From an uncultured Gammaproteobacteria bacterium (GTDB taxonomy: Bacteria > Patescibacteriota > Patescibacteriia > Patescibacteriales > UBA12465), in contig CAZFEF010000001.1 of the NCBI GenBank assembly GCA_964517555.1, positions 56,598 to 120,597 on the forward strand: a DNA stretch of 64,000 bases, given 5' to 3'. Positions 4,072 to 53,051 of the stretch are shown in pieces. The translations under genes were made by a program, and so were the position numbers. How positions within the stretch are numbered: the first letter of the stretch is position 1; each line of letters opens with the position of its first letter. The notes below the pieces were generated by a model. The model did not search any database. It worked only from the letters and a program-made list of their open reading frames with translations, and had not been told where the DNA came from.

Positions 4072-5616
4072 TTATTTATTAATAGCCAATTTAATGCGCT
4101 TGATAGACTCTTCCCTACCTAAGGCCCAGGCGATTTCTGCTGGCCCCGGACTATTTTTTTGTCCGCTTAAAGCTATTCTTAGTGGCCAGAGATATTCTCC
4201 GGTGGGTAACCCTTCCCTTTTTGTCCTTTCCATAATTTCCTCTTCCAAATTGTCTCTGTTCCAATCAGTCTCCGGTATTTTCTCTAAGAGATCAGCAAAA
4301 TATTGTAGATGATTTTTGGCTTCATCCATGGTCATATTTTTCCAGATGAGCAATTCTCGATCATACTCCGGTTCATCCACGAAAAGAAAATGGCTCAACC
4401 CCGGTATTTCCATTAATGTTTTAAGCCTTTCTTGGGAGAGACTAATGATTTTCTCTAATTGTCCCCAGGTAATTTTCTGGCCATTTAAGCGATTAGTATA
4501 ACTCTTGACCATGGAGCGTTTAGGAAAAAATATTTTCCAAAATGATCCGCATTTTTCTTTGATGATTTTGGTTTCTATCAAATACGGCAGACAGAGCTTG
4601 GTTAGTTCGGTGATATTCTTTTGTCGCAGATAATAGCCGTTAAAATAATTAAGCTTATCCAAATCAAAGACTGCTGGCGATGCGCCCAGCCCTTTAATGG
4701 TAAAGATTTTTTTTAATTCCTCCAAATTAAAGAGCTCGTCATTTTTTTCAGTTTCTGGTCGCCAACCGAGTAGAGCGCAGAAGTTTATCAAAGCTTCGGG
4801 CAGGTAGCCTTTTTTTTGATAATCTTCCACAAACACATCCCCCTGACGTTTGCTTAATTTGCCGCCGGTTTTATTTAGGATTAAAGGGAAATGAATAAAT
4901 TTTGGCGGAGTCCAACCAAAGGCCTGATAGAGTAAGATGTTCTTAGGGAACGAAGGTAGCCATTCATCGCCACGGGTGACATGAGAAATGGCCATTAAAT
5001 GATCATCGACTACGCTGGCGAATTGATAAGTTGGGATGCCGTCGGATTTTATTAGAACGTGATCTTCGAGATCGGTGGCGGCAAATTTAATCTCCCCACG
5101 TAATTCATCATGGACTAAAACCTCGCCCTCTAAAGGCATTTTTTGCCTAATAACATAAGGATCGTGGTTATCGAGGTGCTCTTTAATTTCTGCTTCACTT
5201 AAATCACGACAACGACGATCGTAGCGGGGCGCCTGCTGATTTTTCTGTTGTTCCTGACGCATAGCCTCTAACCTAGTGGCCGAGCAAAAACAACGATAGG
5301 CTTTATTGTCTGCTAATAGCTTTTCACAGTGCTCCTGGTAGATTTTTAATCTCTGAGTTTGGATATAAGGACCATATTCCCCGCCCTGTTGCGGCCCCTC
5401 GTCGAAATTTATTCCGGCCCAACTGGTTACTTGCAGCAGTTTCTCTACCGCCCCCTTGGTTTCTCTTTTTTGATCGGTGTCTTCGATTCTTAAAATAAAT
5501 TTTCCTCCCTGGCTACAGGCGATGAGGTAACCAAAAAGAGCCGTACGTAGATTGCCGACGTGCAAGAATCCAGTGGGTGAAGGAGCGAAACGCAAGCGAA
5601 CGTTTTTATCATTCAT
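4072..5616 (-). CDS. gltX: glutamyl-tRNA synthetase
   Basis: Class I HIGH motif (PSPTGFLHVGN) at the N-terminus and KMSKS-type motif (KLSKRQG), with GluRS-like overall length and order. Confidence 0.85.
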   Translation of the reverse strand: MNDKNVRLRFAPSPTGFLHVGNLRTALFGYLIACSQGGKFILRIEDTDQKRETKGAVEKLLQVTSWAGINFDEGPQQGGEYGPYIQTQRLKIYQEHCEKLLADNKAYRCFCSATRLEAMRQEQQKNQQAPRYDRRCRDLSEAEIKEHLDNHDPYVIRQKMPLEGEVLVHDELRGEIKFAATDLEDHVLIKSDGIPTYQFASVVDDHLMAISHVTRGDEWLPSFPKNILLYQAFGWTPPKFIHFPLILNKTGGKLSKRQGDVFVEDYQKKGYLPEALINFCALLGWRPETEKNDELFNLEELKKIFTIKGLGASPAVFDLDKLNYFNGYYLRQKNITELTKLCLPYLIETKIIKEKCGSFWKIFFPKRSMVKSYTNRLNGQKITWGQLEKIISLSQERLKTLMEIPGLSHFLFVDEPEYDRELLIWKNMTMDEAKNHLQYFADLLEKIPETDWNRDNLEEEIMERTKREGLPTGEYLWPLRIALSGQKNSPGPAEIAWALGREESIKRIKLAINK

Positions 5617-5620
5617 ATAA

Positions 5621-6790
5621 TTAGATAATTTCTTTTAACTTGTTTAAGAATATTTCAGCTGAAGGTCGGCGAAGTGGATGAATGAAGTCTAAGGCTTCTT
5701 CTAAATTAATCCAGCGATAGGCTGAGTGGTCCCAAAAATTTATTTTTATATCTTGATCTTGGCCTTCAAATTCAGCGATTACTAGGGCTTGCTTTTGCCC
5801 CTTATAGCCGGTATGTCGTTGGTTGGGAAACTTTCCCATCTCAGAATCAAATTGATAGCGATAAAGGAAGTCATAGACGGCCATCACTTTGAACTTATTA
5901 TTTCCGATCTCTTCTGTCATTTCTTTAATACCAGCAGTTTTGATATCTAATCCATCGGTTCCTCCTTGGGGAAATTGCCAGTGTCCAGGGTTTAAGGTTC
6001 TCTCCACCATCAGTACCTGATAGTTGTCGGCTTTTCGGCGATAAAGCACGCAGGCAACGTTAGGACGATATTTTAGAGGTTGAATAAAACGAGATTTGAT
6101 AACTTCTAGCGGGAAGATTATAAAAGCTCGATAAATTCTTTTAAAGCGTCGCGGCTGCTTAATCAACCGCCAGAGCCATTCAAAACCAATAGAGCGTATT
6201 GGTCGAGGGGCGCGTTTGGCTTTTTTAGTCAAAAAATCTAAGGCCCCACCGATGCCAATGGCCACCTTTAGCCCTGGTATCTTTTGATAATTATGGAAGA
6301 TAAATTTTTCTTGATATGGTGCGCCTAGGGCTACTAGAATAATATCTGCTGTCGGTAATTTTTCCGTTTCTTCTTTGCGTCCTATTTCTTTGATAATAAA
6401 ATTAAGTCGAGGATATTTTTGTCGAATTATTTTTTCGATATCGGCCGCTCGAGATAATCCCTGACTCCAGGGTAGAAAAAGCACTGTTTTGTTTTTGTTT
6501 TCAGCCAGCTTTAATATCGGATTAACTAGGTCTGCTCCGGTGACTCGAGGCAGGCGACGGCCATAGAGCCAGGCGGCGAATTTTAAACCGATGCCATCGG
6601 CCAAGGATAGATCCGCTCGATTTAATATATAGAACAATTCTTCATCGTGGTTTCTAGTGGCTTCTAAAAGTATCTCTGGATTGGGAGTAACCAGAAAATG
6701 GGGCTTGGCTTCTTCTAGCCAAACCTCAATTTTTTGCATTACTTCCTTTTGATTACAACCCGAAAGGGTGATGCCGAAAAGGTTAACCAT
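5621..6790 (-). CDS. WecB/TagA/CpsF-family glycosyltransferase fused to a C-terminal Nudix hydrolase domain
   Basis: N-terminal about 250 aa carries WecB/TagA hallmarks (LGAPYQEKFIF, GIGGALDF). C-terminal about 130 aa is Nudix-like (VLMVERT…PGHWQFPQGG…IKEMTEEIG). Confidence 0.6.
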   Translation of the reverse strand: MVNLFGITLSGCNQKEVMQKIEVWLEEAKPHFLVTPNPEILLEATRNHDEELFYILNRADLSLADGIGLKFAAWLYGRRLPRVTGADLVNPILKLAENKNKTVLFLPWSQGLSRAADIEKIIRQKYPRLNFIIKEIGRKEETEKLPTADIILVALGAPYQEKFIFHNYQKIPGLKVAIGIGGALDFLTKKAKRAPRPIRSIGFEWLWRLIKQPRRFKRIYRAFIIFPLEVIKSRFIQPLKYRPNVACVLYRRKADNYQVLMVERTLNPGHWQFPQGGTDGLDIKTAGIKEMTEEIGNNKFKVMAVYDFLYRYQFDSEMGKFPNQRHTGYKGQKQALVIAEFEGQDQDIKINFWDHSAYRWINLEEALDFIHPLRRPSAEIFLNKLKEII

Positions 6791-6909
6791 ATAGCTTAAT
6801 TATATAATACCGACAGGTTTTGGCAACTGGTATAACTATTTCCCTGTCTTGGCAAATTATGTTATAATAAAAGCAGCTAATTGACTTAATTATTAAGCCA
6901 AGAATTATT

Positions 6910-7872
6910 ATGCCTCAGTACAAAAAAATATCAGATCACATTTCCCAAATTGTCATCAATAATCCTAAAAACAAAGGTAGTCTAAAGTGGGTTAACATTA
7001 GTAATGCTGGTAAAAAGGAGCTTGATTATCTAAAGAAGAATTTTGATTTCAATTTAGCCCATTTGAAGGCCTCGATCTCTACAGTTTTTTCTCAACGACC
7101 GATGATTTCCGAAGAGAAAGGTTATTTTTTTATGATTTTGCATTTTCCGATTTATCATAATGGTTTAGTGATGGCTGCGGAAATTGATTTTTTTATCAGT
7201 CATGGCTATTTAATTACTGTTCACAATCGCAACATACCGGCGCTCAATATCTTTTTTGAAAGATGTAAAACCGATGCCTCTTCCCTCTTGGTTTATAACT
7301 GGGAGTCATCCATTATTTTGCTTTATGAAATTTTAGAGAGATTGATCAATGATTGCTACGTCTTAATCGATCGCAACAGTGTGGGCATCGCCAGGGTTGA
7401 AGATTTAATTTTTTCCCGTCGTCAAAAAGAGGCTGTTACCCTAACTCTTAATTTACGTCGCAATATCATTAATCTGCGCAAGATATTGCAGAATCATCAA
7501 GATATATTAGGTCGTCTGACTTTGGTTAAAAGCAGCTTAGTTCCTCAGGCTCATATTCGCAAACACTATGACAAACTAGTTGAACATTCCAAAAAAATCT
7601 GGACTACCTTAGACAATCAAAAAGAAATGATTGAAGTTTTAAATAATACAAATGAGTCGTTGTTAAATGATCAGATGACTAACATTATGAAGACTTTAAC
7701 AATTTTTTCGGTGATCGTTTTCCCTTTAACATTATTAGCGGCTATATTTGGCATGAACGCTAAATATATGCCTTTTGTAGAACATCCTTATGGTTTTTGG
7801 GTGATTATCGTTATTATGCTTATTTGTTCGGCGGGGATGTTGGTTTTTTTTCGAAGAAAGCACTGGGTATAG
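6910..7872 (+). CDS. corA: CorA-family Mg2+/Co2+ transporter
   Basis: C-terminal two-TM region with the diagnostic GMN motif (AAIFGMNAKYMPF) after a soluble N-terminal domain. Confidence 0.85.
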   Translation: MPQYKKISDHISQIVINNPKNKGSLKWVNISNAGKKELDYLKKNFDFNLAHLKASISTVFSQRPMISEEKGYFFMILHFPIYHNGLVMAAEIDFFISHGYLITVHNRNIPALNIFFERCKTDASSLLVYNWESSIILLYEILERLINDCYVLIDRNSVGIARVEDLIFSRRQKEAVTLTLNLRRNIINLRKILQNHQDILGRLTLVKSSLVPQAHIRKHYDKLVEHSKKIWTTLDNQKEMIEVLNNTNESLLNDQMTNIMKTLTIFSVIVFPLTLLAAIFGMNAKYMPFVEHPYGFWVIIVIMLICSAGMLVFFRRKHWV

Positions 7873-7935
7873 TTTTTTTATTTAGATAGATAAAATAGTC
7901 CAGAAAATGGGCTATTTTTTGTTTTCTAATTTATA

Positions 7936-7964
7936 TTGACATAAACGATTAAACGTGATATACT
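7936..7964 (+). promoter_or_regulatory. sigma70-like promoter (TTGACA-17-TGaTATACT) upstream of the GT4 gene
   Basis: TTGACA at 7936-7941, 17-nt spacer, extended -10 TGaTATACT at 7956-7964, 20 nt upstream of the ATG at 7984. Confidence 0.5.
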
Positions 7965-7983
7965 ATGGAGTTAGTAAAACTAT

Positions 7984-9093
7984 ATGAAAATTGCTTTAAT
8001 TGGACAAAAAGGTATCCCCTTAAACCATGGCGGCGGCGTGGAAAAACACGTTGAGAACTTAGCCGTTAGATTAGTGGAATTAGGCCATGAGGTTTTGGTG
8101 TATACTCGTCATAACTATACTGACAAGAGACTGAAAGAATACAAAGGCGTAAAGATTATCAGTCTGCCCAGTATTAATTCTAAAAACTTGGATGCTATCA
8201 CCCATACTTTTTTGGCTTGTATTGATGTTATTTTCCGTAAGGTAGATGTGGTTCACTTCCATTCGATTGGGCCTTCTTCTCTGCTGTGGCTAGTGCGTTT
8301 GTTTAGACCCAAGACTCCGGTCTTGGCCACTTTTCACAGTCAATGTTATTTCAACGAGAAATGGGGACGCTTCGCCAAATGGTATTTGCGTTTAGGTGAA
8401 TTTATGGCTTGTCGAGTGGCTACTCAGTTGATTGTCGTTTCTAAGTCTTTAGAGAATTATGTTGGCAAAAAATACAACAATCCTCGCATGGTTTATATCC
8501 CTAATGGTGTAAATACCCCTGATATCCTTGAGGCTCAAGAGATTAGGACTCGTTGGGGCTTGGAAAAAAATAGTTATATCTTAAACTTGGGGCGCTTGGT
8601 AAAAAACAAAGGAATTGAATATCTAATTTCCGCTTTTAAGAAAACCCAAACTGACAAGAAGCTAGTTATTACCGGGGATGGTCCGATTTTGGAAGAATTG
8701 AAAACCTTAGCTGGCGATGATCGTCGTATTATTTTTACCGGTAGCCACACTGGCCAAGTTTTTGGTGAATTATTCTCTAACGCTTTATTGTTTGTCCAGC
8801 CTTCCGAATCAGAAGGTCTGTCTATTTCTCTATTGGAAGCTATGTCCTATGGTCTTCCCTGTTTGGTTAGTGATATTCCGGCTAACGTTGAGGTGGTGGA
8901 AAATTCAGCTTTGATTTTTAAAAGCCAGGACGAAAATGACTTATTGGCCAAATTAAATTTGGCTTTAGATAATCCGGAACTCTTACAGAGAAACCGAGAA
9001 CAAATGCTGACTTTGGTCAAGCAAAAGTACTATTGGCCTGACCTGGTCGACCAAATTGTCTCGGTCTATCAAAAATCTACTAAAAAAGCTTAA
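7984..9093 (+). CDS. GT4-family (GT-B) glycosyltransferase
   Basis: C-terminal EX7E-type motif region (SESEGLSISLLEAMSYGLPCLVSD) and N-terminal GT-B fold signature. Confidence 0.8.
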   Translation: MKIALIGQKGIPLNHGGGVEKHVENLAVRLVELGHEVLVYTRHNYTDKRLKEYKGVKIISLPSINSKNLDAITHTFLACIDVIFRKVDVVHFHSIGPSSLLWLVRLFRPKTPVLATFHSQCYFNEKWGRFAKWYLRLGEFMACRVATQLIVVSKSLENYVGKKYNNPRMVYIPNGVNTPDILEAQEIRTRWGLEKNSYILNLGRLVKNKGIEYLISAFKKTQTDKKLVITGDGPILEELKTLAGDDRRIIFTGSHTGQVFGELFSNALLFVQPSESEGLSISLLEAMSYGLPCLVSDIPANVEVVENSALIFKSQDENDLLAKLNLALDNPELLQRNREQMLTLVKQKYYWPDLVDQIVSVYQKSTKKA

Positions 9094-9262
9094 AATACGG
9101 GGATTACTTCTAGCACTTGACATAATTACTAAAATTATATAAAGTGTTGAGTCAGATAATCCCCCGCTTTAGTTTTTAGCTTATATTGCCTGAATATTAA
9201 AGCGGGAGATTGTCTCTTCGGTCTTTTACAATTCACAGTATATTAACCAAATCCTTTCAACA

Positions 9263-10429
9263 ATGAGAAAATTCCTTTTAGCTTTGTTTGTCGCAGTTGT
9301 AGCTTTAAGCTCCTGCAAAAAAGAAACGACCGATGCCTATACGGGCGACGATCAGAATCAGAATTCGACGGCCTACCAGATCAGCTACAGTTTCGGAGGA
9401 AAACAGACGACCGGACTGGTTTCGAACGGCGATACCCTGTATTGCCCGATCGGAAAAGTGCTTTTTGAGTTGATTCCGACGGCCAATGCTGACTGGACCT
9501 TCTATACGAGTTCCTGGTCCATGCTTTCGACTGCCGCCAGTATCAATGAGGCCGCTTATACCTTTTCGACTTTGGGGTGGTACTACCTGACAGTAGTGAA
9601 TCCCGCGCTAGGGATCAATATTACGGTAGTGATCAATGTCAACAACGGCGTACAACCGGTAACCCCGCAAAGCGTTCGTTATGTCGGTGCCTGGTACAAC
9701 CAGAATACCAACGAAATGAATTATGTGTTCCGCGGTCCCAAAGTGTTTCTGTCGGCCACTCAATTCTTTCAGGTTGGTGACGCCTGGAACAACGGCTTTG
9801 CCGAAGTTTTTTCTGGCATGCACATGGTTGGTGCTGATAGCGTTGATGTGGAAATTGCGTTTTCGGCAACCACCGCCCCGTCGCTTAAGAAATTCTGTTA
9901 TGGAGCCACTGTTCTTGGTACGAATACCTGGGTTTCCGGTTGCGATGGTTTATGGCATACCGGCCTTTCTGGACCCGGCAATGACCTCTGGTGGTTCTAC
10001 CCGTCATACGGAACGGCAGTTCCGCACGGAGGTAATACAGCCACAGTGCCTGGAAGTATTCCTGACAACAACGGATCGGTGAATCCGGATATCGCCCCCA
10101 TGACGATTTCCGGGACTAACCTGCGAATTTACTGTTTTATTCCTCCGTTGTCGTATAATGCCCTGATCGGCGCAGGCGCTTATAACCCGCAGTTCCATTA
10201 TAAATCAGCTCCTCATTACGATCCTTTCCCTGTAGGAGCTTGGACTACGGCCACCTTTACGCCTACCAGCACGAACAAAAGCTATTATTATGCTGATCTT
10301 ACCATGCCGGCCAATACCACGATCTGGTTTGAGTGGAGCCAGGCCCTAACCTTCATTCCGATGGTTAACCAAGAAAGCTTATCCGATTCTTGGGATATCA
10401 TTAACAATTGTTGCAAGGTTAGCAACTAA
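9263..10429 (+). CDS. secreted lipoprotein of unknown function (Bacteroidetes-style signal/lipobox)
   Basis: MRKFLLALFVAVVALSSCKKETTD: signal peptide, Cys lipobox, then K/E-rich residues. The gene is clearly more GC-rich than its surroundings, so spurious ORFs overlap it on both strands. No SD sequence upstream. Confidence 0.6.
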   Translation: MRKFLLALFVAVVALSSCKKETTDAYTGDDQNQNSTAYQISYSFGGKQTTGLVSNGDTLYCPIGKVLFELIPTANADWTFYTSSWSMLSTAASINEAAYTFSTLGWYYLTVVNPALGINITVVINVNNGVQPVTPQSVRYVGAWYNQNTNEMNYVFRGPKVFLSATQFFQVGDAWNNGFAEVFSGMHMVGADSVDVEIAFSATTAPSLKKFCYGATVLGTNTWVSGCDGLWHTGLSGPGNDLWWFYPSYGTAVPHGGNTATVPGSIPDNNGSVNPDIAPMTISGTNLRIYCFIPPLSYNALIGAGAYNPQFHYKSAPHYDPFPVGAWTTATFTPTSTNKSYYYADLTMPANTTIWFEWSQALTFIPMVNQESLSDSWDIINNCCKVSN

Positions 10430-10450
10430 GATTCAGTCAAAAAAACTAAA

Positions 10451-10478
10451 AAAGCCCTGAAAAACACAGGGCTTTTTG
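10451..10478 (+). terminator. rho-independent terminator after lipoprotein gene 1
   Basis: GCCCTG-aaaaaca-CAGGGC followed by TTTTT. Confidence 0.6.
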
Positions 10479-10493
10479 ATATCCTTAGCTATC

Positions 10494-10522
10494 TTGACAT
10501 ATTTTTATTTATATGCTATAAT
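10494..10522 (+). promoter_or_regulatory. consensus sigma70 promoter (TTGACA-17-TATAAT)
   Basis: Perfect -35 TTGACA (10494-10499), 17-nt spacer, perfect -10 TATAAT (10517-10522). Located upstream of lipoprotein gene 2. Confidence 0.6.
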
Positions 10523-10651
10523 TGGCCTATAAAGTTCTTTGACCCTATTCCTCTAAATTTGACTGTCAGCTAAGTATTTAAGTTTTGAATATTTGGCCGA
10601 CAGTCAAATAAAAATTATAAACAAACAATATAATAATTGGAGGAACATATC

Positions 10652-11215
10652 ATGAGAAATTTCGTTTTTTTACTGGCAATTTTCGCCTTGCTGTTTAGTT
10701 CATGCAAAAAGGAATACATTGAACCTTATGGCAATGGCGTGGACACCGTTTACGTTAATGGCGGGAACAACAACAATAACAATAACCCGCCCACCGGCTG
10801 GCATTACGCTGCTACGACCCCCACAATGACCGGGAATGAGTTTGCCTGGAACCTTTCCAATTCTTCCCTGGATCCCACCGGGAAAGAGATTTTCGTAGTA
10901 TGGATTTCCAATTCGGGAGCCATCAACTACAACAAATTATTGGACGGCGTTTCGGGAGTTTTTTCCGGCGGCAGTATCAACAGCGGCACCATTAGGATGA
11001 CATTGAGCCCGAGCTATGGAAAACTGAAGTTCAACTTCGCAGTCAATTCCGGGCCACCGTCGAACAAATGGTTCTGGTTTATAGCCCAGGGCCCATTGGT
11101 TCAGCTTCCTTGCCAGCACACATCAGGCGGACTCTGTTTTGACGACGGCGTCAACAACCTGTTCTCTACCCTCTACTCGGGTGGAAACTGGGTCGCTGGA
11201 GACCCCTGTCCATGA
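10652..11215 (+). CDS. secreted lipoprotein of unknown function (second of a pair), with an Asn7 run
   Basis: GGAGGA RBS 7 nt upstream of the ATG at 10652 (the ORF-track start at 10637 is probably too long). MRNFVFLLAIFALLFSSCKKEY lipoprotein signal. GC-rich like its neighbour. Confidence 0.6.
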   Translation: MRNFVFLLAIFALLFSSCKKEYIEPYGNGVDTVYVNGGNNNNNNNPPTGWHYAATTPTMTGNEFAWNLSNSSLDPTGKEIFVVWISNSGAINYNKLLDGVSGVFSGGSINSGTIRMTLSPSYGKLKFNFAVNSGPPSNKWFWFIAQGPLVQLPCQHTSGGLCFDDGVNNLFSTLYSGGNWVAGDPCP

Positions 11216-11234
11216 TCAGGTCAAAGATCTTTCA

Positions 11235-11268
11235 ACAAAAAAGGAACCCCCAAAAGGTTCCTTTTTCA
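11235..11268. terminator. bidirectional rho-independent terminator between convergent genes
   Basis: A-run, AGGAACC-cccaaaa-GGTTCCT, T-run. Sits between the lipoprotein gene (+) and pyrG (-). Confidence 0.6.
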
Positions 11269-11282
11269 TTTGTCTAAATAGA

Positions 11283-12944
11283 TTATTTTTTCTTTCCCTT
11301 TAATTCCTTGCAGACTTTGATGAACTCAACAAATAACGGATGTGGGCTTAAAGGTCGGGAGACATATTCTGGATGAAATTGAGTGCCGATAAAAAAAGGG
11401 TGCTTGGTAATTTCAATCGCTTCTACTATCTGGCCGTCAGGTGAGGCGCCGGCAATGGTTAAGCCATGTTTTTCCATTATTTCTCGGAAGTCATTATTAA
11501 ATTCATAGCGATGACGGTGTCTTTCTGACACTGTTTTTTTGTCGCTGAATTTTTGGTAGGCTTTGGCTAGGTGGGTTTGCGGAACAATCTTGCAGGGCCA
11601 GCCGCCTAAACGAATGGTGCCGCCATAGCCTTTTTCTTTTATTAATTTTTCTTGTCCGGGCATGATATGAATTACTTGGTTTTTAGTGTTTTTGTCTACC
11701 TCTTCTGAATTGGCATCTTTGAGGCCGCAGACATTACGAGAGAACTCAATCACCGCCATTTGCATGCCATAGCAAAGACCGAAGTACGGGACTTTATTTT
11801 CTCGACAATATTTAATAGTTTTTATCTTCCCTTCTGAGCCGCGACTGCCCCAACCTTGAGGGACGATGATGCCGGCTAATTTTTTTAAGACACCAACACC
11901 CTTCTTTTCTATTTCTTCGGTATTAATCCATTCTATTTCTACTTTGGTGTGGTTATGGGCGGCGGCGTGTTTGACGGCTTCAATGACGGAAATATAGGAA
12001 TCGCCTAAGGAAAAATCACCAGTGGCGAAGTATTTGCCAACTATGCCAATTTTAACTTTGTCTTTAGCGGTTTTTAGATTACGTACCATCTTAGCCCACT
12101 CCTGATTATTATGCTTGCCAGGTTTTGGTTTAAGTTTTAAAACTTTCAAGATGTTTTCTCCCAGTTTGTCTCTTTCGAAATTAAGCGGAATATCATAAAT
12201 AGAGTCGGCGTCCGGAGCGGAAATAACGTTTTCTGGTAAGATGTTGCAGTTAATCGCTATTTTCTCGCGGCGAGCCTGGTCAATGTCCACTTCGGAGCGA
12301 GCGATAATAAAGTTGGGCTGGATGCCAGCGCCGTTTAGACTGCGAACTGCATGCTGGGTAGGTTTGGTTTTCATTTCGCCGATTTTATTAGGTAGCGGCA
12401 AATAGGAAACCATAACAAAAGCGACGTCGTCTGGATGATAGAGCTTCATGACTCTAGCAGCCTCTAAAAATAACAGGTTCTCATATTCACCCACTGTACC
12501 GCCAATTTCAATGATCATAATTTCAGCCTTGGTTTTCTCTACGGCTTTTTCAATGCGGTCTCTGATCTCTTGAGGGATATGCGGCACCACTTGAACGCAG
12601 CGGCCTTTATATTCTAAATTTCTTTCTTTGTTGATAACGGTTTGATAGACTCGACCGGTGGTCATGTAGTTTTCTCGGTAGATATTTTTATTCAAAAACC
12701 GCTCGTAGTTACCAATATCCTGGTCAGTTTCATCGCCGTCTTCAGTGACGAATACCTCGCCATGTTCCACGGGGTTCATGGTGCCGGCATCGACATTGAT
12801 ATAGGGGTCCATTTTAATGGCACTGACTTTAAAGCCTTTAGCTTGCAGGATTTCGCCGATCGAAGCCGTGGTAATACCTTTACCAACGCCGCTCATCACT
12901 CCTCCGACGACAAAGATAAACTTAGTGCGGTTTTTTTCCGACAT
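11283..12944 (-). CDS. pyrG: CTP synthase
   Basis: N-terminal synthetase domain motif (FVVGGVMSGVGKGITTASIG) and C-terminal class-I glutamine amidotransferase with GLCYGMQ. Confidence 0.9.
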   Translation of the reverse strand: MSEKNRTKFIFVVGGVMSGVGKGITTASIGEILQAKGFKVSAIKMDPYINVDAGTMNPVEHGEVFVTEDGDETDQDIGNYERFLNKNIYRENYMTTGRVYQTVINKERNLEYKGRCVQVVPHIPQEIRDRIEKAVEKTKAEIMIIEIGGTVGEYENLLFLEAARVMKLYHPDDVAFVMVSYLPLPNKIGEMKTKPTQHAVRSLNGAGIQPNFIIARSEVDIDQARREKIAINCNILPENVISAPDADSIYDIPLNFERDKLGENILKVLKLKPKPGKHNNQEWAKMVRNLKTAKDKVKIGIVGKYFATGDFSLGDSYISVIEAVKHAAAHNHTKVEIEWINTEEIEKKGVGVLKKLAGIIVPQGWGSRGSEGKIKTIKYCRENKVPYFGLCYGMQMAVIEFSRNVCGLKDANSEEVDKNTKNQVIHIMPGQEKLIKEKGYGGTIRLGGWPCKIVPQTHLAKAYQKFSDKKTVSERHRHRYEFNNDFREIMEKHGLTIAGASPDGQIVEAIEITKHPFFIGTQFHPEYVSRPLSPHPLFVEFIKVCKELKGKKK

Positions 12945-12963
12945 AACTTTATATTTAGATGAT

Positions 12964-14196
12964 TTATTTAGCTTTGATTATAGCCACAGCACGGTCAAAT
13001 TGAGGATCACGATCATTCTCCCAGTCTTCAGTGGTTAGTTTCACTTCTTCATTCGGCGTTATCCCCTGTTCATTAATGGATATTCCCTTGGGGGTCAACC
13101 ATTTAGCTACGGTTATTTTAATAGCTGAGCCGTCTTCTAAATCTAACAGAGTCTGAACTGAGCCTTTCCCAAAAGTTTTTTCGCCGATAACTATTCCCTG
13201 ATTATTATCCTTTAGAGCACCGGCTACTATTTCTGAAGCTGAAGCGCTACCTTTGTTTACTAAAACTACAGTTTTAATTCCTCGCAAGCGGGCTCGATTT
13301 TTCCCCAAATATTCATTTTTTTCTGAATCACTGAATTTTTCAATTACAATTGTGCCTTTGTCTATCCACTCGCTGGCCATATCGACAGCAGTATCTAAAT
13401 AGCCGCCAGGATTGTTGCGCAAATCCAAGATGATGCCGGTTGGCTTTTGGGCCACTATTTCCTTAACGGCGTTATCGAACAAACCCTTGGTATCGCTATT
13501 GAAGGCGCTGATTTTAATGACATAAATATTATCAGCCCGTCTTTCGGTAGTGACTGATTTAATCACTATTAGATCGCGTTTGATTACATAATCTTTAGTA
13601 TCGCTTTCTCCGGAGCGGTAGATGTTTAGGGTCACTTCGGTGCCCTTCTTGCCTCTAATTAAGCGGACTGCGGCCTCTACGCTCATATTCAAGGTCGTGG
13701 CGCCGTCTATGGCATAGATTTGATCTCCGGCTTTGATGCCGGCTTTTTGGGCTGGCGTCCCTTCCAAAGGAGCAATGACAGTGATTACTTCATTTCTGAG
13801 TCCAATTTCCGCTCCAATTCCCTCAAAGGAGCCGGAGAGATCGTCTTGAAATTGTTTGTTTTCTTTCGGGTCCAAGAAGCTGGTATAAGGATCACCGACA
13901 GATTCGACCATTCCCCTGAGAGAGCCATAGAAAAGTTCAGACTCATCAATTTTATCCTTATCAACATAATTATCCTTTAGTGATTGCCAAACGCGCCAAT
14001 AAAGGCTGAAATCTACATTCCGCGGCAGACTGATACCATCTTCCCCGCCAGCGTTAGCTAGGGCGCGATTATGTTTTTGGTCATTGACATAAATCCCGGC
14101 AAAAAAAGCCAGGCTAATGATTAATAGAATCAAGAAGCCACCGGCTAAGCGCCAAAGGCGATGTTTCAATTTATTCTTACTGAAAATCATAGACAT
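12964..14196 (-). CDS. ctpA: carboxy-terminal processing peptidase (S41 family) with PDZ domain
   Basis: N-terminal TM anchor, PDZ region, and S41 catalytic region (ILDLRNNPGGYLDTAV … S/K dyad context). Confidence 0.8.
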   Translation of the reverse strand: MSMIFSKNKLKHRLWRLAGGFLILLIISLAFFAGIYVNDQKHNRALANAGGEDGISLPRNVDFSLYWRVWQSLKDNYVDKDKIDESELFYGSLRGMVESVGDPYTSFLDPKENKQFQDDLSGSFEGIGAEIGLRNEVITVIAPLEGTPAQKAGIKAGDQIYAIDGATTLNMSVEAAVRLIRGKKGTEVTLNIYRSGESDTKDYVIKRDLIVIKSVTTERRADNIYVIKISAFNSDTKGLFDNAVKEIVAQKPTGIILDLRNNPGGYLDTAVDMASEWIDKGTIVIEKFSDSEKNEYLGKNRARLRGIKTVVLVNKGSASASEIVAGALKDNNQGIVIGEKTFGKGSVQTLLDLEDGSAIKITVAKWLTPKGISINEQGITPNEEVKLTTEDWENDRDPQFDRAVAIIKAK

Positions 14197-14237
14197 ATTT
14201 ATTTATCCATTTTACTCTTTTATAATTTTTTTGACAA

Positions 14238-14753
14238 TTAGATCAGCGATCTTAAAATTCTTAAAGCCTCTGGAAAGAAGGGACTGATTATACCAACAGC
14301 TTGCAGAAGATAAGGAGCTATTTGAGAGCCGATTAATTGGTCGGCTATGAAGGTATCGATTAAGGTGTAACGCGAGGCCATGTAAATTACCATTCCCAAG
14401 ATCAAGACGCCTTCGACAAAACCAAAGACGGCACCGGCTATTTTGTTTATCCCTTTTATAAACGGAATAATCGAGGCGATGTTAATGGCTTTGTCCAGCA
14501 TGTCAAAGGCCCAGCCGATGATTTTAGTGGCGACGCCCAAAACCAGGATAAAAGCAATTATTTTCCCCAAGTTTTCATTGCCAAAGAACATCCAGTTTAG
14601 CCAATTGTATACTTGTTCATAATAATGACTGGCCACCCAAGCACCGATCAAGATGCCAATTAAATAGCCGACCATTTTAATTAGCCCATGGAAGAGGCCA
14701 TAGAAAGTAAAGCCGGCGATAACAATGATTAAGATGACATCAATTAAAACCAT
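14238..14753 (-). CDS. CvpA-family membrane protein
   Basis: Four-TM small protein with a CvpA-like N-terminus (MVLIDVILIIVIAGFTFYGLFHG…). Confidence 0.5.
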   Translation of the reverse strand: MVLIDVILIIVIAGFTFYGLFHGLIKMVGYLIGILIGAWVASHYYEQVYNWLNWMFFGNENLGKIIAFILVLGVATKIIGWAFDMLDKAINIASIIPFIKGINKIAGAVFGFVEGVLILGMVIYMASRYTLIDTFIADQLIGSQIAPYLLQAVGIISPFFPEALRILRSLI

Positions 14754-14783
14754 ATTGTTTAATTTAATATTAATTTATATAAA

Positions 14784-15215
14784 TTATGGACAAGCGCCAG
14801 CAATTATCCCTTTAGGCTCCGCGCAATTTAATCCCGCGGCCAGGCCACCGGTTTCGTGTCCTAAACAAAATTCCAGAGCATAATTATTGCTATCTATTTG
14901 GCGATAGGAGTAAGTACTACTGGTGCAATTACCGTCAGCGGTTAGGGGGGCGTTGGGGACGGCTGTTAGATAGGTGATGTTGGTAGTTGAACCAATTAAA
15001 GCTTGGCCAGAGGTGACTCCGAGTGGATATTGATTTTCGTCGCGGTGATAGAATTCTAAAGCGTTTTGGATTTGGGCGATATCGCTTAGTCTCTTGCTAT
15101 CTCGGGATTTTTCCCTAATCACTTTGAAAGAAACAGTAGCCGCTCCAGCCACAATGCCAATAATGAGGATGACCGCCAATAGTTCTATTAAAGTGAAGGC
15201 CGGATTTTTTTTCAT
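14784..15215 (-). CDS. type IV pilin / pseudopilin-like protein (prepilin N-terminal methylation motif)
   Basis: MKKNPAFTLIELLAVILIIGIVAGAA: a class III signal peptide (G/FTLIE) followed by a hydrophobic helix. C-terminal Cys pair. Confidence 0.8.
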   Translation of the reverse strand: MKKNPAFTLIELLAVILIIGIVAGAATVSFKVIREKSRDSKRLSDIAQIQNALEFYHRDENQYPLGVTSGQALIGSTTNITYLTAVPNAPLTADGNCTSSTYSYRQIDSNNYALEFCLGHETGGLAAGLNCAEPKGIIAGACP

Positions 15216-15224
15216 AATTTATGA

Positions 15225-16652
15225 TTAATTATCTAAACGTGGGAAAAGCCCTTCTCCCTTAGTGATTGTCGGAGCTAAAAATTGTTGCTGTATTTTTTCG
15301 GCGGTTTGCGGCAGAAATATTTTTAACCAGAAAGCAATATCTAAAATATTTTGAGCCACTATTTCCAGGCAAGCTTTTATCTCCGTTTGGTCTTGCATTT
15401 TCCAGGGAGTTTTTAGGCTGAGATATTCGTCACTGGCTTTCACCTTTTCCCAAATTATTTTCAAAGCATTACCGATGTCATAGATCTCTAGCGCTTTTTT
15501 TATTTCCTCGGAAAATTTTGAGTCACTTTCGTTCACTAGTTTTAGTGATAGATTGTTTTTCTCAATCAAATTAGTTGTGCGGGAGATCAAGTTGCCTAAA
15601 CCGTTAGCTAGGTCAGAATTGTATAAGGCCTTGAATTTGTCTTCAGTAAAATCGCCGTCTTCAAAGGTTGGTATTTCTCTAAGGAGATAATAGCGAAGAG
15701 CATCAGTGCCATATTTTTCTACTAAATTCTTGGGCTCGACTACGTTTCCTAGAGATTTGCTCATTTTTTGGCCGTTAGAGTTGATAAAGCCGAAGATTAA
15801 TACTCCTAAAGAATTGGGTAGTTTGGCTGACAGCAACATTGCTTGCCACATCGCCGTTTGCTGGCGCAAGTTGTCCTTGCCGCAGACTTGTAGTCCGGGC
15901 CAGTACTTATCAAAATTCTGTTTTTCTTCCGGCCAGCCTAGGCTGGAAATATAGTTGGTTAAAGCATCAAACCAGACATACATCACCTGGGTATCATCGC
16001 CAGGAACCGGAACTCCCCAGGGCATTTTGTCTTTGAGCCTGGAAATGGAAAAATCTTGTAATCCAGAAGCTACAAAGTTTCTAATTTCTTTCAAGCGATG
16101 TGGCGGATAGACAAAACCAGGGTTTTGATCATAGAGGGCCAATAGTTCGTCTTGATATTTAGAAAAACGGAAAAAGTAATTTTCCTCTTCGATTATTTCT
16201 AAATCTTTGTCCGGGTGGAGCGGACAGCGGCCATGATCGAGGTCAGAATCGGTTTTTTCTAATTCGCAACCGACGCAATATTTGACGCTGTATGTTTTTT
16301 TGTAGATGTCGCCGTTTTGTTGACAGATTTCCCAGAATTTTTGAGCACTGCTTAGATGATGAGCATCAGTGGTTCGGATAAAATTGTCATAACTGATATT
16401 GAGCAATTCTTTCAGTTCTTTAAAGGTCGTGGCTAGGTTGTCGCAATAAGTTTGGACGTCAACTCCCTCTTCCTGGGAGCGACGATAGATCTTTAGACCA
16501 TGCTCATCAGTACCGGTATTAAAAAATACTTCTTCTCCTAAAAGACGGTGATAACGAGCCAAAACATCAGCCTTGATGATTTCGGCGGCAAAGCCGATAT
16601 GGGGGCTGGAGTTGATATAAGGCAAAGTGGTAGTGATGTAGAATGGTTTCAT
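15225..16652 (-). CDS. metG: methionyl-tRNA synthetase (short form)
   Basis: HIGH-type motif (TTLPYINSSPHIGFA), zinc knuckle CVGCE…C…H, and KMSKS followed by LGNVVEP as in MetRS. Confidence 0.75.
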   Translation of the reverse strand: MKPFYITTTLPYINSSPHIGFAAEIIKADVLARYHRLLGEEVFFNTGTDEHGLKIYRRSQEEGVDVQTYCDNLATTFKELKELLNISYDNFIRTTDAHHLSSAQKFWEICQQNGDIYKKTYSVKYCVGCELEKTDSDLDHGRCPLHPDKDLEIIEEENYFFRFSKYQDELLALYDQNPGFVYPPHRLKEIRNFVASGLQDFSISRLKDKMPWGVPVPGDDTQVMYVWFDALTNYISSLGWPEEKQNFDKYWPGLQVCGKDNLRQQTAMWQAMLLSAKLPNSLGVLIFGFINSNGQKMSKSLGNVVEPKNLVEKYGTDALRYYLLREIPTFEDGDFTEDKFKALYNSDLANGLGNLISRTTNLIEKNNLSLKLVNESDSKFSEEIKKALEIYDIGNALKIIWEKVKASDEYLSLKTPWKMQDQTEIKACLEIVAQNILDIAFWLKIFLPQTAEKIQQQFLAPTITKGEGLFPRLDN

Positions 16653-16655
16653 AAA

Positions 16656-17327
16656 TTATTGGATAATAACGACAAATTCGCCCTTAGTGGCCGACGGATC
16701 TTTCGCTAATTCTTCTAAAATTTCAGTGGCACTGCCGCTGTAACTTTTTTCATGAATCTTGGTTAATTCCTTAAAAAGAATAATCTTTTTTTGAGGCATT
16801 AATTCAGTTACTTCTTGGAGCAGTTTACTGATGCGATAGCGAGATTCATAAAGAATCACTGGCTCTGGTTTCTTGGCGATCATTTTTAACTCGGTCTGTC
16901 TGCCTTTTTTGTGTGGCAGGAAACCCAGGAAAGTGAAATGATTACAATTAATTCCCAATAAGGACAGGGCGGCAGTTAAAGCGGAGGGTCCGGGTATGCA
17001 TTTGATTTTAATTTCTTCCCCCTGATTTCTAACGGCTTCAATCAATTTATTACCTGGGTCAGAAATTCCTGGGGTGCCGGCGTCGCTGACTAAAGCTAGA
17101 TTCTTGCCAGCTTTTAGCCAGCTGATAATTTGCTCAACTTTATTAATCTTAGAATGCTCATGATAGGAAACGGCCGGGGTGTTTATCTGATAATGGTTCA
17201 GTAGCTTGCGGCTGTTTCTGGTATCTTCACACAAAATATAATCAACTTCTTTCAGAGTTTCTAGTGCTCTTAGAGTGATGTCGCCCAAATTACCAATTGG
17301 AGTAGCTACAATGTACAAGGTGGACAT
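16656..17327 (-). CDS. rsmI: 16S rRNA (cytidine1402-2'-O)-methyltransferase RsmI
   Basis: Tetrapyrrole-methylase-fold signature LYIVATPIGNLGDITLRALETLKEVDYILCEDTR. Confidence 0.85.
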   Translation of the reverse strand: MSTLYIVATPIGNLGDITLRALETLKEVDYILCEDTRNSRKLLNHYQINTPAVSYHEHSKINKVEQIISWLKAGKNLALVSDAGTPGISDPGNKLIEAVRNQGEEIKIKCIPGPSALTAALSLLGINCNHFTFLGFLPHKKGRQTELKMIAKKPEPVILYESRYRISKLLQEVTELMPQKKIILFKELTKIHEKSYSGSATEILEELAKDPSATKGEFVVIIQ

Positions 17328-17331
17328 AGGA

Positions 17332-19008
17332 TTAGGCTAAGTCTTCCTTCTTCTCTTTTAGATATTTGGTCCAATCTTCAACGATATTGATGATGATTTT
17401 AAACGGTGCTTCTAGGATGAAGTCGAAAATAAAGATGAAGAAATTTAGCCGGGAGACGTTATCTGACAAAAATTTGCCCATCGCTACTATCGGCATATAG
17501 AAGAAATCAAAGATAAAGCCCAAGATGGTTTCTTTGTCGTCAGTGATGACATATTGCTTGACGTCACGTTTGACCCTAAAGCTAAAGAAACTGACGAAAG
17601 CCAAGAAGAACAGGAAGATGGTGATGCTTACCCAGTTAAAGTTGATATAGTTTAAAAGCTTGATTAAAAAGTATACCGAGATCAAAAAAGCTCCGGCGTA
17701 GATTAGATTAAACAAGGAATTCATCAGATAATTACGTCTAGTAGGACGACGCAAATAGATCGGCTGAGTCTTTTTCAATTCAGAATAGGTAATTTCCTTG
17801 ATACCGTTAATTATTTTTTCAGTATTTTTGGCATTGGGAGTTTTGGTAAAGAGAATCATCAGAAATAGCAATACGGCCGGAAAACTGACATTGATTGCCA
17901 AGGAAAAGGTGTTGACCTGCTCCCCGAAGAATTTAATGGCCGGAATCTCTAAAATGAATACAAAAATCGACTTGGTTAAAAAGATGTAGATGATACTTCT
18001 TAATCCCGAACGCCAAAGTTTGTTCTTGACCTTGCTATATCGCTTCTGACATTTTTCCTTAATTAATGAAAAGAAGGCTTTTTCGTTAGTGGTGGCGTTG
18101 TCATAAACCTTGGCGGCGTTGTCGCTCATGGTTTCTAATAACATAGAATAATAGAGCGAGTAGCGGCGGACGATTTTATCGATTTGTTTCATTAAAGGAT
18201 GGTGCAATTGTCTTTCCACTATTTGGTTTAAACTTTTTAGATTCTTAGCAATTTTAATTAAATCTTCCTCTTGAGCTTCTTCCCAAGAATTATAGAATTT
18301 GAAAGCCAAGAAAGACTGCATCTCCAGGTCTAGCTTCAAGTAACTACGAGAGATGCTCAAGTATATTTGCAAATCTAAATCCTTTTGGTAAGAAAGGTCC
18401 GGTGGTAGTTTTATAATCCGGCTCAAGACACTAAACATGTTGGCGATTACTGCCTGTCGTAAAGGTGTAGAGTTTAGGTTTTCTTCAATTTCAGTGGCCG
18501 CCAAAGAAATGATCCAATTAACCAACTTGTTTCTTTCCTTGCTCTCTTTATTGCCCAGATTATGGGCCGGGTAATTTTCCTTGAAGTAATGACGGAGCTT
18601 GATATACTTGTCGAGTAATATGCCCACTTCCCCAATTTTAGCTTCCGGGATTTTGTTGTTCTCTAAATAACCGGCTTGGATTAACTCGGTTAGCAGGTGT
18701 TTGGATACCTCCTCGCTGTCGTAGTTTTTGAGAGCGCCTTCAATCATTATTTGCCGCTTCAGGATTCTTTTTATGGCGTTTTTACGCAATAAATGATCCT
18801 CATCATAGTCGACGGCGATACGGATTTTTTCGTAAATAAAAGAAAGACGAGAAACTATCTGGGAAACATGAATTCGCGGGATGTCATCATCCTCTAGGCC
18901 TTTGCTAGTTTTTTGTTGTTGACCGTAGGCTAACTGAAAAAGCTTTTTGGTTTCCGGGTTAACCGTGAAAAAAGACTGGCTCTTTTTAATTAAATTAGGG
19001 CTCACCAT
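17332..19008 (-). CDS. hypothetical membrane protein (558 aa; soluble N-terminal half, multi-TM C-terminal half)
   Basis: Long ORF with several hydrophobic helices in the C-terminal third. No recognizable catalytic motif. Confidence 0.5.
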   Translation of the reverse strand: MVSPNLIKKSQSFFTVNPETKKLFQLAYGQQQKTSKGLEDDDIPRIHVSQIVSRLSFIYEKIRIAVDYDEDHLLRKNAIKRILKRQIMIEGALKNYDSEEVSKHLLTELIQAGYLENNKIPEAKIGEVGILLDKYIKLRHYFKENYPAHNLGNKESKERNKLVNWIISLAATEIEENLNSTPLRQAVIANMFSVLSRIIKLPPDLSYQKDLDLQIYLSISRSYLKLDLEMQSFLAFKFYNSWEEAQEEDLIKIAKNLKSLNQIVERQLHHPLMKQIDKIVRRYSLYYSMLLETMSDNAAKVYDNATTNEKAFFSLIKEKCQKRYSKVKNKLWRSGLRSIIYIFLTKSIFVFILEIPAIKFFGEQVNTFSLAINVSFPAVLLFLMILFTKTPNAKNTEKIINGIKEITYSELKKTQPIYLRRPTRRNYLMNSLFNLIYAGAFLISVYFLIKLLNYINFNWVSITIFLFFLAFVSFFSFRVKRDVKQYVITDDKETILGFIFDFFYMPIVAMGKFLSDNVSRLNFFIFIFDFILEAPFKIIINIVEDWTKYLKEKKEDLA

Positions 19009-19071
19009 ATAGGGCTTGATTTTGATAAATTATACCTTTATTTTAGCGGTTTTCTTTTCAAAAAGCAAACC

Positions 19072-19100
19072 TTGACACTGTCGGCCCTATCGGGTATTAT
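19072..19100 (+). promoter_or_regulatory. sigma70-like promoter (TTGACA-17-TATTAT) for the secE-nusG-rplK-rplA operon
   Basis: TTGACA at 19072-19077, 17-nt spacer, TATTAT at 19095-19100, immediately upstream of secE. Confidence 0.55.
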
Positions 19101-19115
19101 ATAAGCAGAAAACAA

Positions 19116-19346
19116 ATGGCCGACGGGGCCGTTTTTAAATACTTAAATCAGAGCAATAATATGAGTAAAATTAGTAATTATTTGAAAGAATCAGTAATTG
19201 AAATGAAAAAAGTTACTTGGCCTACCAAGAAACAGACTTATCACTACACTTTGCTGGTCATTGGTATCAGCTTGGCGGTGGCTTTGTTTTTGGGCGCCTT
19301 GGATTTTATTTTTAATGGTATTTTAACCTGGGTTGTTACCCGGTAA
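19116..19346 (+). CDS. secE: preprotein translocase subunit SecE
   Basis: Single C-terminal TM with the conserved KKVTWPTKKQT motif. The classic secE-nusG-rplK-rplA order follows. The true start may be the internal ATG at 19161. Confidence 0.8.
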   Translation: MADGAVFKYLNQSNNMSKISNYLKESVIEMKKVTWPTKKQTYHYTLLVIGISLAVALFLGALDFIFNGILTWVVTR

Positions 19347-19375
19347 TTAATAGTTCTTAATCTAAAGCCAAATTT

Positions 19376-19921
19376 ATGGCCAAACAAACTTTGAATCAAG
19401 GACGTCGTTGGTATGTGCTTCACACCTATTCCGGCTATGAAGAGAATGTAGCTAGGAATTTAAAGCAAAGAGTGGAGACCTTGGATATGGGCAACCAGAT
19501 CTTTAATGTTTTGGTGCCGATTGAAAAGAAAACTAAGATTAAAAATGGTAAACGTAAGTTGGTGGAGGAGAAGATCTTCCCTGGCTATGTTTTGGTGGAA
19601 ATGGAAGTAACTGACGAGTCTTGGTATGTAGTCCGCAATACGCCTAACGTTACCGGCTTTATCGGTGTTGGCTCAGTACCGACCCCGGTTTCCGAGGAAG
19701 AAATAAAATCCCTAAAGAAAAGAATGGGCGAAGAAGATCCGAAATTTAAGATCGATGTCACTGTGGGAGATTTGGTGCGGATTACCGAAGGTCCCTTCAA
19801 GAACCTGGAAGGAAAAGTGGTGGCCGTTGACGAGGCTAAGGGTAAGATCAAGGTCAACGTCTCCATGTTCGGCCGTGAGACTCCGGTAGAATTAGATTTT
19901 TTGCAAATCAAGAAAGTATAA
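19376..19921 (+). CDS. nusG: transcription termination/antitermination factor NusG
   Basis: NGN domain (WYVLHTYSGYEENV) and C-terminal KOW motif (GDLVRITEGPFKNLEGKVV). Confidence 0.9.
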   Translation: MAKQTLNQGRRWYVLHTYSGYEENVARNLKQRVETLDMGNQIFNVLVPIEKKTKIKNGKRKLVEEKIFPGYVLVEMEVTDESWYVVRNTPNVTGFIGVGSVPTPVSEEEIKSLKKRMGEEDPKFKIDVTVGDLVRITEGPFKNLEGKVVAVDEAKGKIKVNVSMFGRETPVELDFLQIKKV

Positions 19922-19984
19922 TTAATCAGTGCTTTCGGCGACGGAAATTATTCCGTCCTTGCTTCTCCGAAAGACAATTATCAT

Positions 19985-53047: not shown

Positions 53048-53051
53048 AATT

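Follow-up and report, generated by a model that had tools for sequence, protein, structure and literature searches.

The lpl genes of Staphylococcus aureus belong to one family, DUF576. Within the lpl cluster, adjacent lipoprotein genes are accompanied by conserved intergenic and regulatory DNA while their coding parts vary, the unit of conservation not being the open reading frame (ORF) (PMC2568036). In Borrelia, ospC and other host-interacting lipoprotein loci are single-copy genes at a fixed locus whose alleles, exchanged by recombination, diverge much more than the flanks do (PMC11389397); their diversity has been attributed to frequency-dependent selection. Features of both systems reappear in a 64-kb stretch of contig CAZFEF010000001.1 (the window, that is, the whole stretch of DNA analysed), where two neighbouring genes, called here LipoA and LipoB, lie in the slot between a GT4 gene and pyrG. 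An earlier note on this stretch took them for a GC-rich insert of Bacteroidetes-style lipoprotein genes, acquired horizontally or produced by contamination or a chimeric assembly. The analysis reported here leads to a different reading, which we regard as probable: a native variable surface-lipoprotein locus of a Falkowbacteria-like genome, whose alleles are swapped by recombination. Recombining, polymorphic loci are already known for surface lipoproteins, and the present one adds a new case restricted to its lineage.

Allele replacement is best seen by comparison with a sister strain, represented by contigs L007 and L002 of sample SRR21848549 and reproduced in SRR21848552 (contigs of related loci are numbered L001 to L016, W and S2 stand for the window and the sister strain, and a slot gene is designated by its contig and its length). 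The flanking proteins of both strains are 93-100% identical (MetRS, NusG and L11, 100%; GT4, 99.2%; S41, 98.8%; PyrG, 97.8%), whereas identity falls to 37% in LipoA and 63% in LipoB. The same contrast is found along the DNA, which is 92-100% identical up to about position 9216, the LipoA promoter and leader hairpin included (~99%), drops to ~40-55% across LipoA and its terminator, returns to ~99% over 10494-10648, where the LipoB promoter and leader are located, falls to ~65% exactly over the LipoB coding sequence (CDS), and is again ~99% from the stop codon on. The breakpoints are sharp and coincide with the edges of conserved regulatory DNA; that of LipoA, at ~9216/9217, is the 3' foot of its leader hairpin.

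Synonymous (dS) and non-synonymous (dN) divergences, calculated by the Nei-Gojobori method, point in the same direction. In the flanking genes dS is mostly 0-0.25, reaching 0.70 in WecG/CorA, and dN does not exceed 0.03, whereas LipoA shows a dS of 3.1 and a dN of 0.72, and LipoB a saturated dS and a dN of 0.32. Since synonymous sites are saturated beside non-coding DNA that is nearly unchanged, the alleles must be old and imported or maintained by recombination, rather than products of recent point mutation. Moreover, their relationships are discordant with those of the neighbouring genes: W and S2 share 99% identity in GT4 and 37% in LipoA, while W and L001 share 64% in GT4 and 48% in LipoA. 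The four LipoB alleles of the clade form a star, being 57-63% apart whatever the PyrG or GT4 distance. Allele divergence far above that of the flanks, sharp borders and a discordant allele genealogy are the marks of a polymorphic locus, and the coding segments have been exchanged between related strains or species. Thus, the horizontal acquisition of surface proteins put forward in the earlier note survives as far as lipoproteins and exchange among relatives are concerned, but not as an origin in Bacteroidetes.

Divergence from L007/L002 is also a mosaic over the whole interval 4072-20407. The dS is 0 in L11 and the pilin gene, 0.006-0.06 in hyp558, NusG, MetRS and CvpA, and 0.10-0.25 in GluRS, S41, GT4, PyrG and the TP methylase gene. 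This mosaic indicates that recombination is frequent throughout the region, beyond the lipoprotein slot too.

Annotations of the relatives of the adjacent PyrG (CTP synthase) name Candidatus Falkowbacteria or Patescibacteria, and the host is a Candidatus Falkowbacteria-like member of the Patescibacteria. The gene order CorA-GT4-lipoprotein genes-pyrG (convergent)-S41 peptidase is present in every relative. In ten related genomes (L001, L002/3, L004/6/10, L007/8, L009 and L012-L016), with PyrG proteins 78-98% identical to that of the window (78-84% in the more distant Falkowbacteria-like ones), the slot carries from one to three lipoprotein genes: one in L012, L014 and L015, two in L009, and three in L013 and L016. 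Because related lipoprotein genes occupy the slot in all ten loci, it is not an insert, as had been proposed, and seems to be native and conserved in the lineage. At its borders there are no mobility genes, tRNA genes or flanking repeats, and no integrase adjoins it.

The distant slot genes encode N-termini of the same style (SSA-CEKE, TS-CKKYE and SS-CSKE). L013-382 is remotely related to LipoA (hhalign probability 97.9, E 5e-13) and L013-193 to LipoB (hhalign probability 96.7, E 3e-10), while the profile match of the L012 slot gene is weak. L009-207 (207 aa) has no LipoB homology past the signal peptide, yet it is preceded by the same leader. Scans of genome and metagenome contigs with the LipoB profile merely gave more copies of the L004-type locus. 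A search of 5.8 billion clustered proteins yielded one LipoA relative and two LipoB relatives, and a HMMER profile search of 1.84 billion representatives gave four LipoA-type proteins in all. Neither search returned a homologue from Bacteroidota, nor any from outside a narrow Falkowbacteria-like lineage. No account of this locus in bacteria of the candidate phyla radiation (CPR) was found in the literature; the "hypervariable gene" of Gracilibacteria (PMC6851277) was considered as the same phenomenon and rejected, being repeat-based and different.

Both genes are real and lie on the + strand, and each forms a separate monocistronic unit with its own sigma-70 promoter, structured 5' leader and terminator (Table 1). 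The earlier note had assigned a TTGACA-17-TATAAT promoter to both; this holds for LipoB, whose promoter is perfect, and not for LipoA, in which the -10 hexamer deviates. A promoter of the TTGACA / (TG)TATAAT type is found in five of the seven aligned upstream regions of the last slot gene. Both leaders fold far better than shuffled sequence (z -6.1 for LipoA and -7.7 for LipoB). As already noted, LipoA lacks a Shine-Dalgarno (SD) sequence, there being no G in the 20 nt ahead of its ATG. The LipoA leader of L001 likewise has a hairpin and no SD, and LipoA of L013 also lacks an SD, while that of L009 has GGAG; neither L009 nor L013 has kept the hairpin, whose conservation is limited to the clade of the window. 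The true start of LipoB is the ATG at 10652, 8 nt past GGAGG (10639-10643), and not the TTG at 10637.

An all-beta structure is predicted for the mature part of LipoA, in which T, S, G, N, A and W abound. LipoB contains, as had been observed, a homopolymer of seven Asn residues (10766-10786), which is a putative linker; a beta-rich domain and conserved Cys154, Cys162 and Cys186 are also present. The resemblance between LipoA and LipoB is confined to the signal peptide, so they are not paralogues, and tblastn detected no paralogues or silent copies of either in the 64-kb window. The neighbouring genes GT4 and WecG are cell-envelope genes.

Upstream of the last slot gene, the DNA is conserved across genomes even though their coding sequences are at 21-35% identity or unrecognisable. 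RNAalifold, applied to six and then eight genomes, gives a hairpin of 23 pairs, 15 of which show compensatory double changes. In the control, 93.4% of the cells are paired, slid registers reach only 31-54%, and none of 500 shuffles attains the observed covariation. One G-U pair is present in 6/6 and then 7/8 sequences, and further G-U pairs are present, which indicates a sense-strand RNA rather than a DNA palindrome. The covariance model built from this leader, R1, scores 20+ bits better on the sense strand and finds one match per locus, always ahead of a LipoB-type gene, including L014 and L016, on which it was not trained; it has no other match in the 64-kb window. No Rfam 15 family matches the leader, the best overlapping one being Ysr35 (13 bits vs a gathering score of 428).

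The hairpin is closed by a helix between an anti-SD and the SD in the minimum free energy (MFE) fold of five of the six leaders, and both sides of this helix change together: UUCCUC pairs with GGAGGAA in the window, AUCCUCCU with AGGAGGAU in L001, and CCCUU with AAGGG in L009. The L013 leader has neither the anti-SD nor its SD partner. From these pairings, the leader probably masks the LipoB ribosome-binding site, and it can be proposed as a previously undescribed, covarying, SD-sequestering element, a candidate new cis-regulatory RNA. Its stability, -37 to -41 kcal/mol, makes it too stable for a thermometer; our guess is that it is most plausibly opened by a protein factor or through processing of the RNase III type.

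With respect to the protein signals, the N-termini are MRKFLLALFVAVVALSS-CKKE in LipoA and MRNFVFLLAIFALLFSS-CKKE in LipoB, both type-II (lipoprotein) signal peptides, and on this point the earlier note was right. A positively charged n-region precedes an uncharged hydrophobic h-region of the expected 7-22 residues (MRK-FLLALFVAVVA and MRN-FVFLLAIFALL), as in all homologues. The lipobox agrees with the pattern [LVI][ASTVI][GAS]C with Cys at about 15-25, the Phe at -3 of LipoB being non-canonical. The lipobox Cys is invariant across the homologue alignments, and the signal peptides are kept in all homologues. Three ORFs of the window have a lipobox: LipoA, LipoB and 21978-22310 (-). The last one encodes 110 aa with LSA-CGQTN and a cytochrome b5-like domain, and at +2 to +4 it departs from the slot-gene style, CKKE.

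The lipoprotein export signal (LES) of Bacteroidetes is C-X-K-(D/E)2-X with net negative charge (PMC5080379). The slot proteins resemble these lipoproteins in having a Lys and an acidic residue after the lipobox Cys. LipoA (C-K-K-E-T-T-D) and LipoB (C-K-K-E-Y-I-E) indeed carry K at +3 and E at +4, but T or Y at +5, so that the second acidic residue is lacking; the net charge of positions +2 to +6 is +1 in both, and there is no homology to the Bacteroidetes proteins. None of the nine family members checked has the (D/E)2 of the LES. Furthermore, it has been proposed that Patescibacteria lack an outer membrane (PMC12102498), in which case a LES would have no job there. The signal described as typical of Bacteroidetes is, judging from these residues, a superficial resemblance only.

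Both genes are GC-richer than their surroundings, as previously stated: 0.490 in LipoA and 0.493 in LipoB versus 0.389 in the window and 0.419 in the core CDS, with a G+C content at third codon positions (GC3) of 0.55 and 0.61, respectively. In the two proteins T, S, G, N, A, P and W are over-represented, and K, E, I, R and L under-represented. When each protein was recoded with the codon usage of the backbone, the excess of LipoA (+0.073) could be split into +0.043 due to amino-acid composition and +0.030 to synonymous choice, and that of LipoB (+0.076) into +0.027 and +0.049. Native genes reach a synonymous excess of +0.042 (the H+-PPase gene) and +0.058 (22409-22909, the maximum), so the slot genes fall near the top of the native range without leaving it. 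Nor are spurious overlapping ORFs peculiar to this region, as had been claimed, the number of alternative-frame ORFs per kb being 4.28 in LipoA as against 4.17 and 3.6 in the H+-PPase and GT4 genes, respectively. The GC rise is real yet modest, and alone it is no sign of foreign DNA. Raised GC3 (0.55-0.68) is common to all four alleles of the species and is also present in L001 and L004, but not in L012-L016. Possible causes are a recombination hot spot with GC-biased gene conversion, import from GC-richer relatives and an expression-linked bias. GC3 or synonymous GC is also raised in the H+-pyrophosphatase gene (25541-27937), in the 166-aa ORF 22409-22909 and in a secreted 190-aa ORF (27985-28557); two of these three encode membrane or secreted proteins, which hints at a class-specific codon bias.

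The integrity of the assembly is supported by contig L005, from an independent Logan assembly of SRR8925755, which spans GT4-LipoA-LipoB-pyrG and is 100% identical to window positions 7872-11775 (3,904 bp). Because it reproduces the joins exactly, contamination or chimerism is removed as an explanation, as far as this is possible without reads. Contigs L002, L003, L004, L006 and L010, from five independent assemblies, start 175-270 nt upstream of LipoB, and L007 and L008 end about 110 nt past LipoA; the L007 end and the L002 start do not overlap. Such a recurrent assembly break at the LipoA/LipoB junction suggests within-sample heterogeneity.

In the reading that we favour, the products of both genes would be lipidated at the Cys and anchored on the outside of the single cell membrane, where the Asn/Thr/Ser/Gly/Trp-rich all-beta domains may be displayed on the cell surface behind a flexible Asn/Gly/Pro linker. 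Whole alleles would be swapped by homologous recombination anchored in the conserved promoters and leaders and in the flanking genes. Their diversity could be kept by frequency-dependent selection exerted by surface recognisers, either phages or the partner or host cells of a presumed episymbiont, and a role as adhesins or phage targets may be inferred. The long covarying hairpin would bring the anti-SD beside the SD and so gate LipoB translation by sequestering the ribosome-binding site; a factor or a processing step would be needed to open it, such as cleavage of the ~30-bp duplex by RNase III. An unusual amino-acid composition and a modest bias in GC3 would together account for the raised GC, and this bias may be a by-product of frequent recombination or of import from GC-richer relatives. 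A bolder version, which we offer tentatively and consider rather doubtful, is that the GT4-pyrG slot is a dedicated expression site for interchangeable surface-lipoprotein cassettes. According to it, a population-wide library of very old alleles would be moved in by recombination, the undescribed leader RNA would gate translation, for instance only upon contact with a partner, and the host cells or phages able to engage the bacterium would depend on the allele carried.

Some observations weigh against the favoured reading or limit its reach. The allele contrast comprises two allele sets from one species-level population and one sister strain, and the coexistence of alleles in one population has indirect support only, through the contig ends at the LipoA/LipoB junction. 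LipoA and LipoB match no family in Pfam, NCBIfam, PHROGs or PADLOC; the sole signal in family searches is a sub-threshold match, limited to the signal peptide, to the PG1828 lipoprotein family (E 0.04-0.08), and profile searches of PDB sequences gave chance matches only (E >0.04). AlphaFold2 models based on alignments of 2-3 sequences are all-beta but unusable (pLDDT 43 and 47). With regard to the cause of the GC3 excess, a codon-fit donor test against six related backbones did not discriminate, and the stability of the LipoB leader makes the release of its SD speculative.

Among the other explanations, the unlikely but least improbable is that LipoA and LipoB are ordinary housekeeping lipoproteins, devoted to solute binding or envelope maintenance, that are weakly constrained and caught in a general recombination mosaic. 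The mosaic dS of the flanks, from 0 to 0.70, shows that recombination is indeed general, and the adjoining GT4 and WecG genes belong to the cell envelope. Against this, there is no solute-binding or other domain match and no adjacent transporter, dN is 0.32-0.72 versus no more than 0.03 in the flanks, the number of slot genes varies from 1 to 3, and expression signals are strongly conserved while the coding sequences turn over, as at L009-207. Evolution in place, by point mutation since the strain split under positive selection, targeted hypermutation or the action of the diversity-generating retroelement (DGR) of the window, is clearly improbable. In its favour are a working DGR at a distance of 30 kb, the fast evolution common among surface proteins and the high dN; but a dS above 3 next to non-coding leaders and terminators that are ~99% identical is not what such a process would leave, the divergence extends over the whole CDS instead of a C-terminal variable repeat (VR), and the sister strain's LipoA allele is more remote than the one carried by a distant genome. 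Moreover, when 9094-11282 was compared by blastn with the remainder of the window, no copy of LipoA or LipoB resembling a template repeat (TR) was found.

A site-specific cassette system, in which the hairpins would be attC-like or recombinase DNA sites used in integron-type exchange, is very improbable. Imperfect palindromes precede both genes, the LipoA breakpoint falls at a hairpin foot and a tyrosine recombinase gene is present at 1789-2745. That recombinase, which we take to be a housekeeping enzyme of the XerC/D type, is about 6.4 kb off, and the pairing of an M23 peptidase gene with a Phage_integrase-family gene recurs in L015. The core of attC sites contains conserved AAC/GTT triplets; these are absent here, and no integrase adjoins the slot. 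The hairpins occupy the interval from promoter to start codon, on the 5' side of the genes, and apart from the TTT..AAA foot their arms vary, while the LipoB breakpoint is 40 nt past the hairpin, after the SD. The near-invariant G-U pair and the sense-strand advantage of the covariance model fit an RNA. A recent two-gene island from Bacteroidetes, bringing GC-rich genes for LES-type surface lipoproteins into an AT-rich backbone, can scarcely be credited. GC of 0.49 versus 0.39-0.42, the slightly Bacteroidetes-like C-K-K-E N-termini, the weak PG1828 match and the lack of an SD in LipoA could be cited for it, but no Bacteroidetes or other outside homologue exists in the databases searched, relatives hold homologous genes in the same slot, promoters and leader are native and conserved, the LES is absent from the family members checked, the lineage is proposed to have no outer membrane, the excess of synonymous GC does not exceed that of native genes, and nothing at the borders suggests mobility. 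An assembly artefact, that is, a chimeric join or contaminating fragment between GT4 and pyrG, has a negligible chance of being true: the local GC shift and the contigs of several relatives that end beside slot genes might point to it, but L005 is identical over 3,904 bp, the same order occurs in L001 and L012-L016, and strain heterogeneity explains the contig ends better.

The truly deviant part of the window is an AT-rich island at ~38000-62500 (GC 0.30-0.37), which looks like the real foreign DNA of the stretch. It includes a complete DGR (40012-42796), 30 kb from the slot, whose TR and VR differ at about 20 positions, all of them A-specific on the coding strand. This DGR was considered as the source of the slot variation and rejected, its TR having no similarity to LipoA or LipoB. 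Closer to the slot, between MetRS and CvpA, there is a pilin-like gene (14784-15215, 143 aa, with an N_methyl motif). In L011, L013, L014 and L016 the same site carries one to four N_methyl proteins of 352-591 aa with Laminin_G_3, Calx-beta or Fib_succ_major domains, and it appears to be a second variable surface-protein slot of the neighbourhood.

Table 1. Features of the LipoA/LipoB locus and of the AT-rich island, with positions in the window
Feature	Position	Strand	Details
LipoA promoter	9117-9145	+	TTGACA-17-TAAAGT, 10/12 consensus matches; ~99% identical in sister strain
LipoA leader hairpin	9154-9215	+	G+C-rich; MFE -32.9 kcal/mol, z -6.1 vs shuffled
Variable segment 1	about 9217-10490		spans LipoA CDS
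LipoA CDS	9263-10429	+	388 aa; lipobox LSS-C, Cys18 at 9314-9316
LipoA terminator	10449-10477	.	intrinsic hairpin, T-runs on both sides, z -4.1; sister-strain version different
LipoB promoter	10494-10522	+	TTGACA-17-TATAAT, 12/12 matches; extended -10 TG
Conserved box AAAGTTCTTT	10531-10540	+	near predicted LipoB transcription start (~10529); from alignments
LipoB leader RNA motif	10548-10613	+	anti-SD UUCCUC 10548-10553 and 23-pair hairpin 10558-10608 (~51 nt)
LipoB Shine-Dalgarno	10639-10645	+	GGAGGAA, paired with anti-SD in MFE fold
Variable segment 2	10649-11215		spans LipoB CDS
LipoB CDS	10652-11215	+	187 aa; lipobox FSS-C, Cys18 at 10703-10705
Terminator after LipoB	11238-11266	.	bidirectional, common to convergent pyrG; identical in sister strain
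DGR reverse transcriptase-like ORF	40012-41268	-	TIGR04416 1e-11, no Pfam match
DGR bAvd gene	41275-41643	+	
DGR TR	41660-41768		matches only VR 42127-42235
DGR VR	42127-42235		in 3' end of GC-rich ORF 42104-42796 (-)
ADP-ribosylglycohydrolase gene	44421-45338		island gene
Cas4/RNase H-like gene	45873-47375		island gene
GmrSD gene	47381-49084		island gene
Type I restriction-modification HsdR/S/M genes	50084-56347		island genes
Toprim primase-like gene	57852-60035		island gene
Large serine recombinase gene	60859-62469		island gene

CPR bacteria (Patescibacteria) are thought to live attached to other cells, and the surface molecules involved in recognition are scarcely known. The slot is a concrete candidate for such molecules, testable as a determinant of host or phage specificity, and a marker of strain-level population structure; its turnover would account for the recurrent assembly breaks in these metagenome-assembled genomes. 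The leader is a candidate RNA element in a phylum in which very few have been described. If the slot were a dedicated expression site, it would constitute a population-level, DGR-independent system of antigenic or host-range variation in the CPR. As a lesson in method, a local rise in GC together with lipoprotein-like N-termini is not evidence of transfer across phyla.

RNA thermometers such as ROSE and fourU, and leaders activated by RNase III such as that of E. coli adhE, sequester the SD. The LipoB leader shares with them an upstream CU-rich anti-SD that pairs with the SD, and a structure that must open for translation. It differs in being a new sequence family with a 23-bp covarying clamp of about -40 kcal/mol, and it is so far confined to one gene slot of Falkowbacteria-like genomes.

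The DGRs of CPR bacteria have the same apparent purpose as the slot, the diversification of a surface or binding protein. However, a DGR rewrites a short C-terminal VR by A-specific changes, whereas LipoA and LipoB differ over their full length, by all types of substitution and with no TR. In Mycoplasma, the Vsp, Vlp and vlhA proteins (e.g. PMC11261720) are, as those of the slot would be, abundant membrane-anchored lipoproteins that constitute the variable face of a wall-less or monoderm bacterium of small genome. Their variation is intragenomic, based on multigene families, phase switching and repeats, while that of the slot is found between strains; no gene family, silent cassettes or switch elements for LipoA and LipoB were found in the window. 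The lpl cluster of S. aureus is composed of tandem paralogues of one family, unlike LipoA and LipoB, which are unrelated past the signal peptide. With respect to ospC, there is no sequence relation and no detectable fold relation. Borrelia is a vector-borne pathogen, while the slot belongs to an uncultured CPR host whose alleles were compared between strains, and here two adjacent genes are each swapped on their own.

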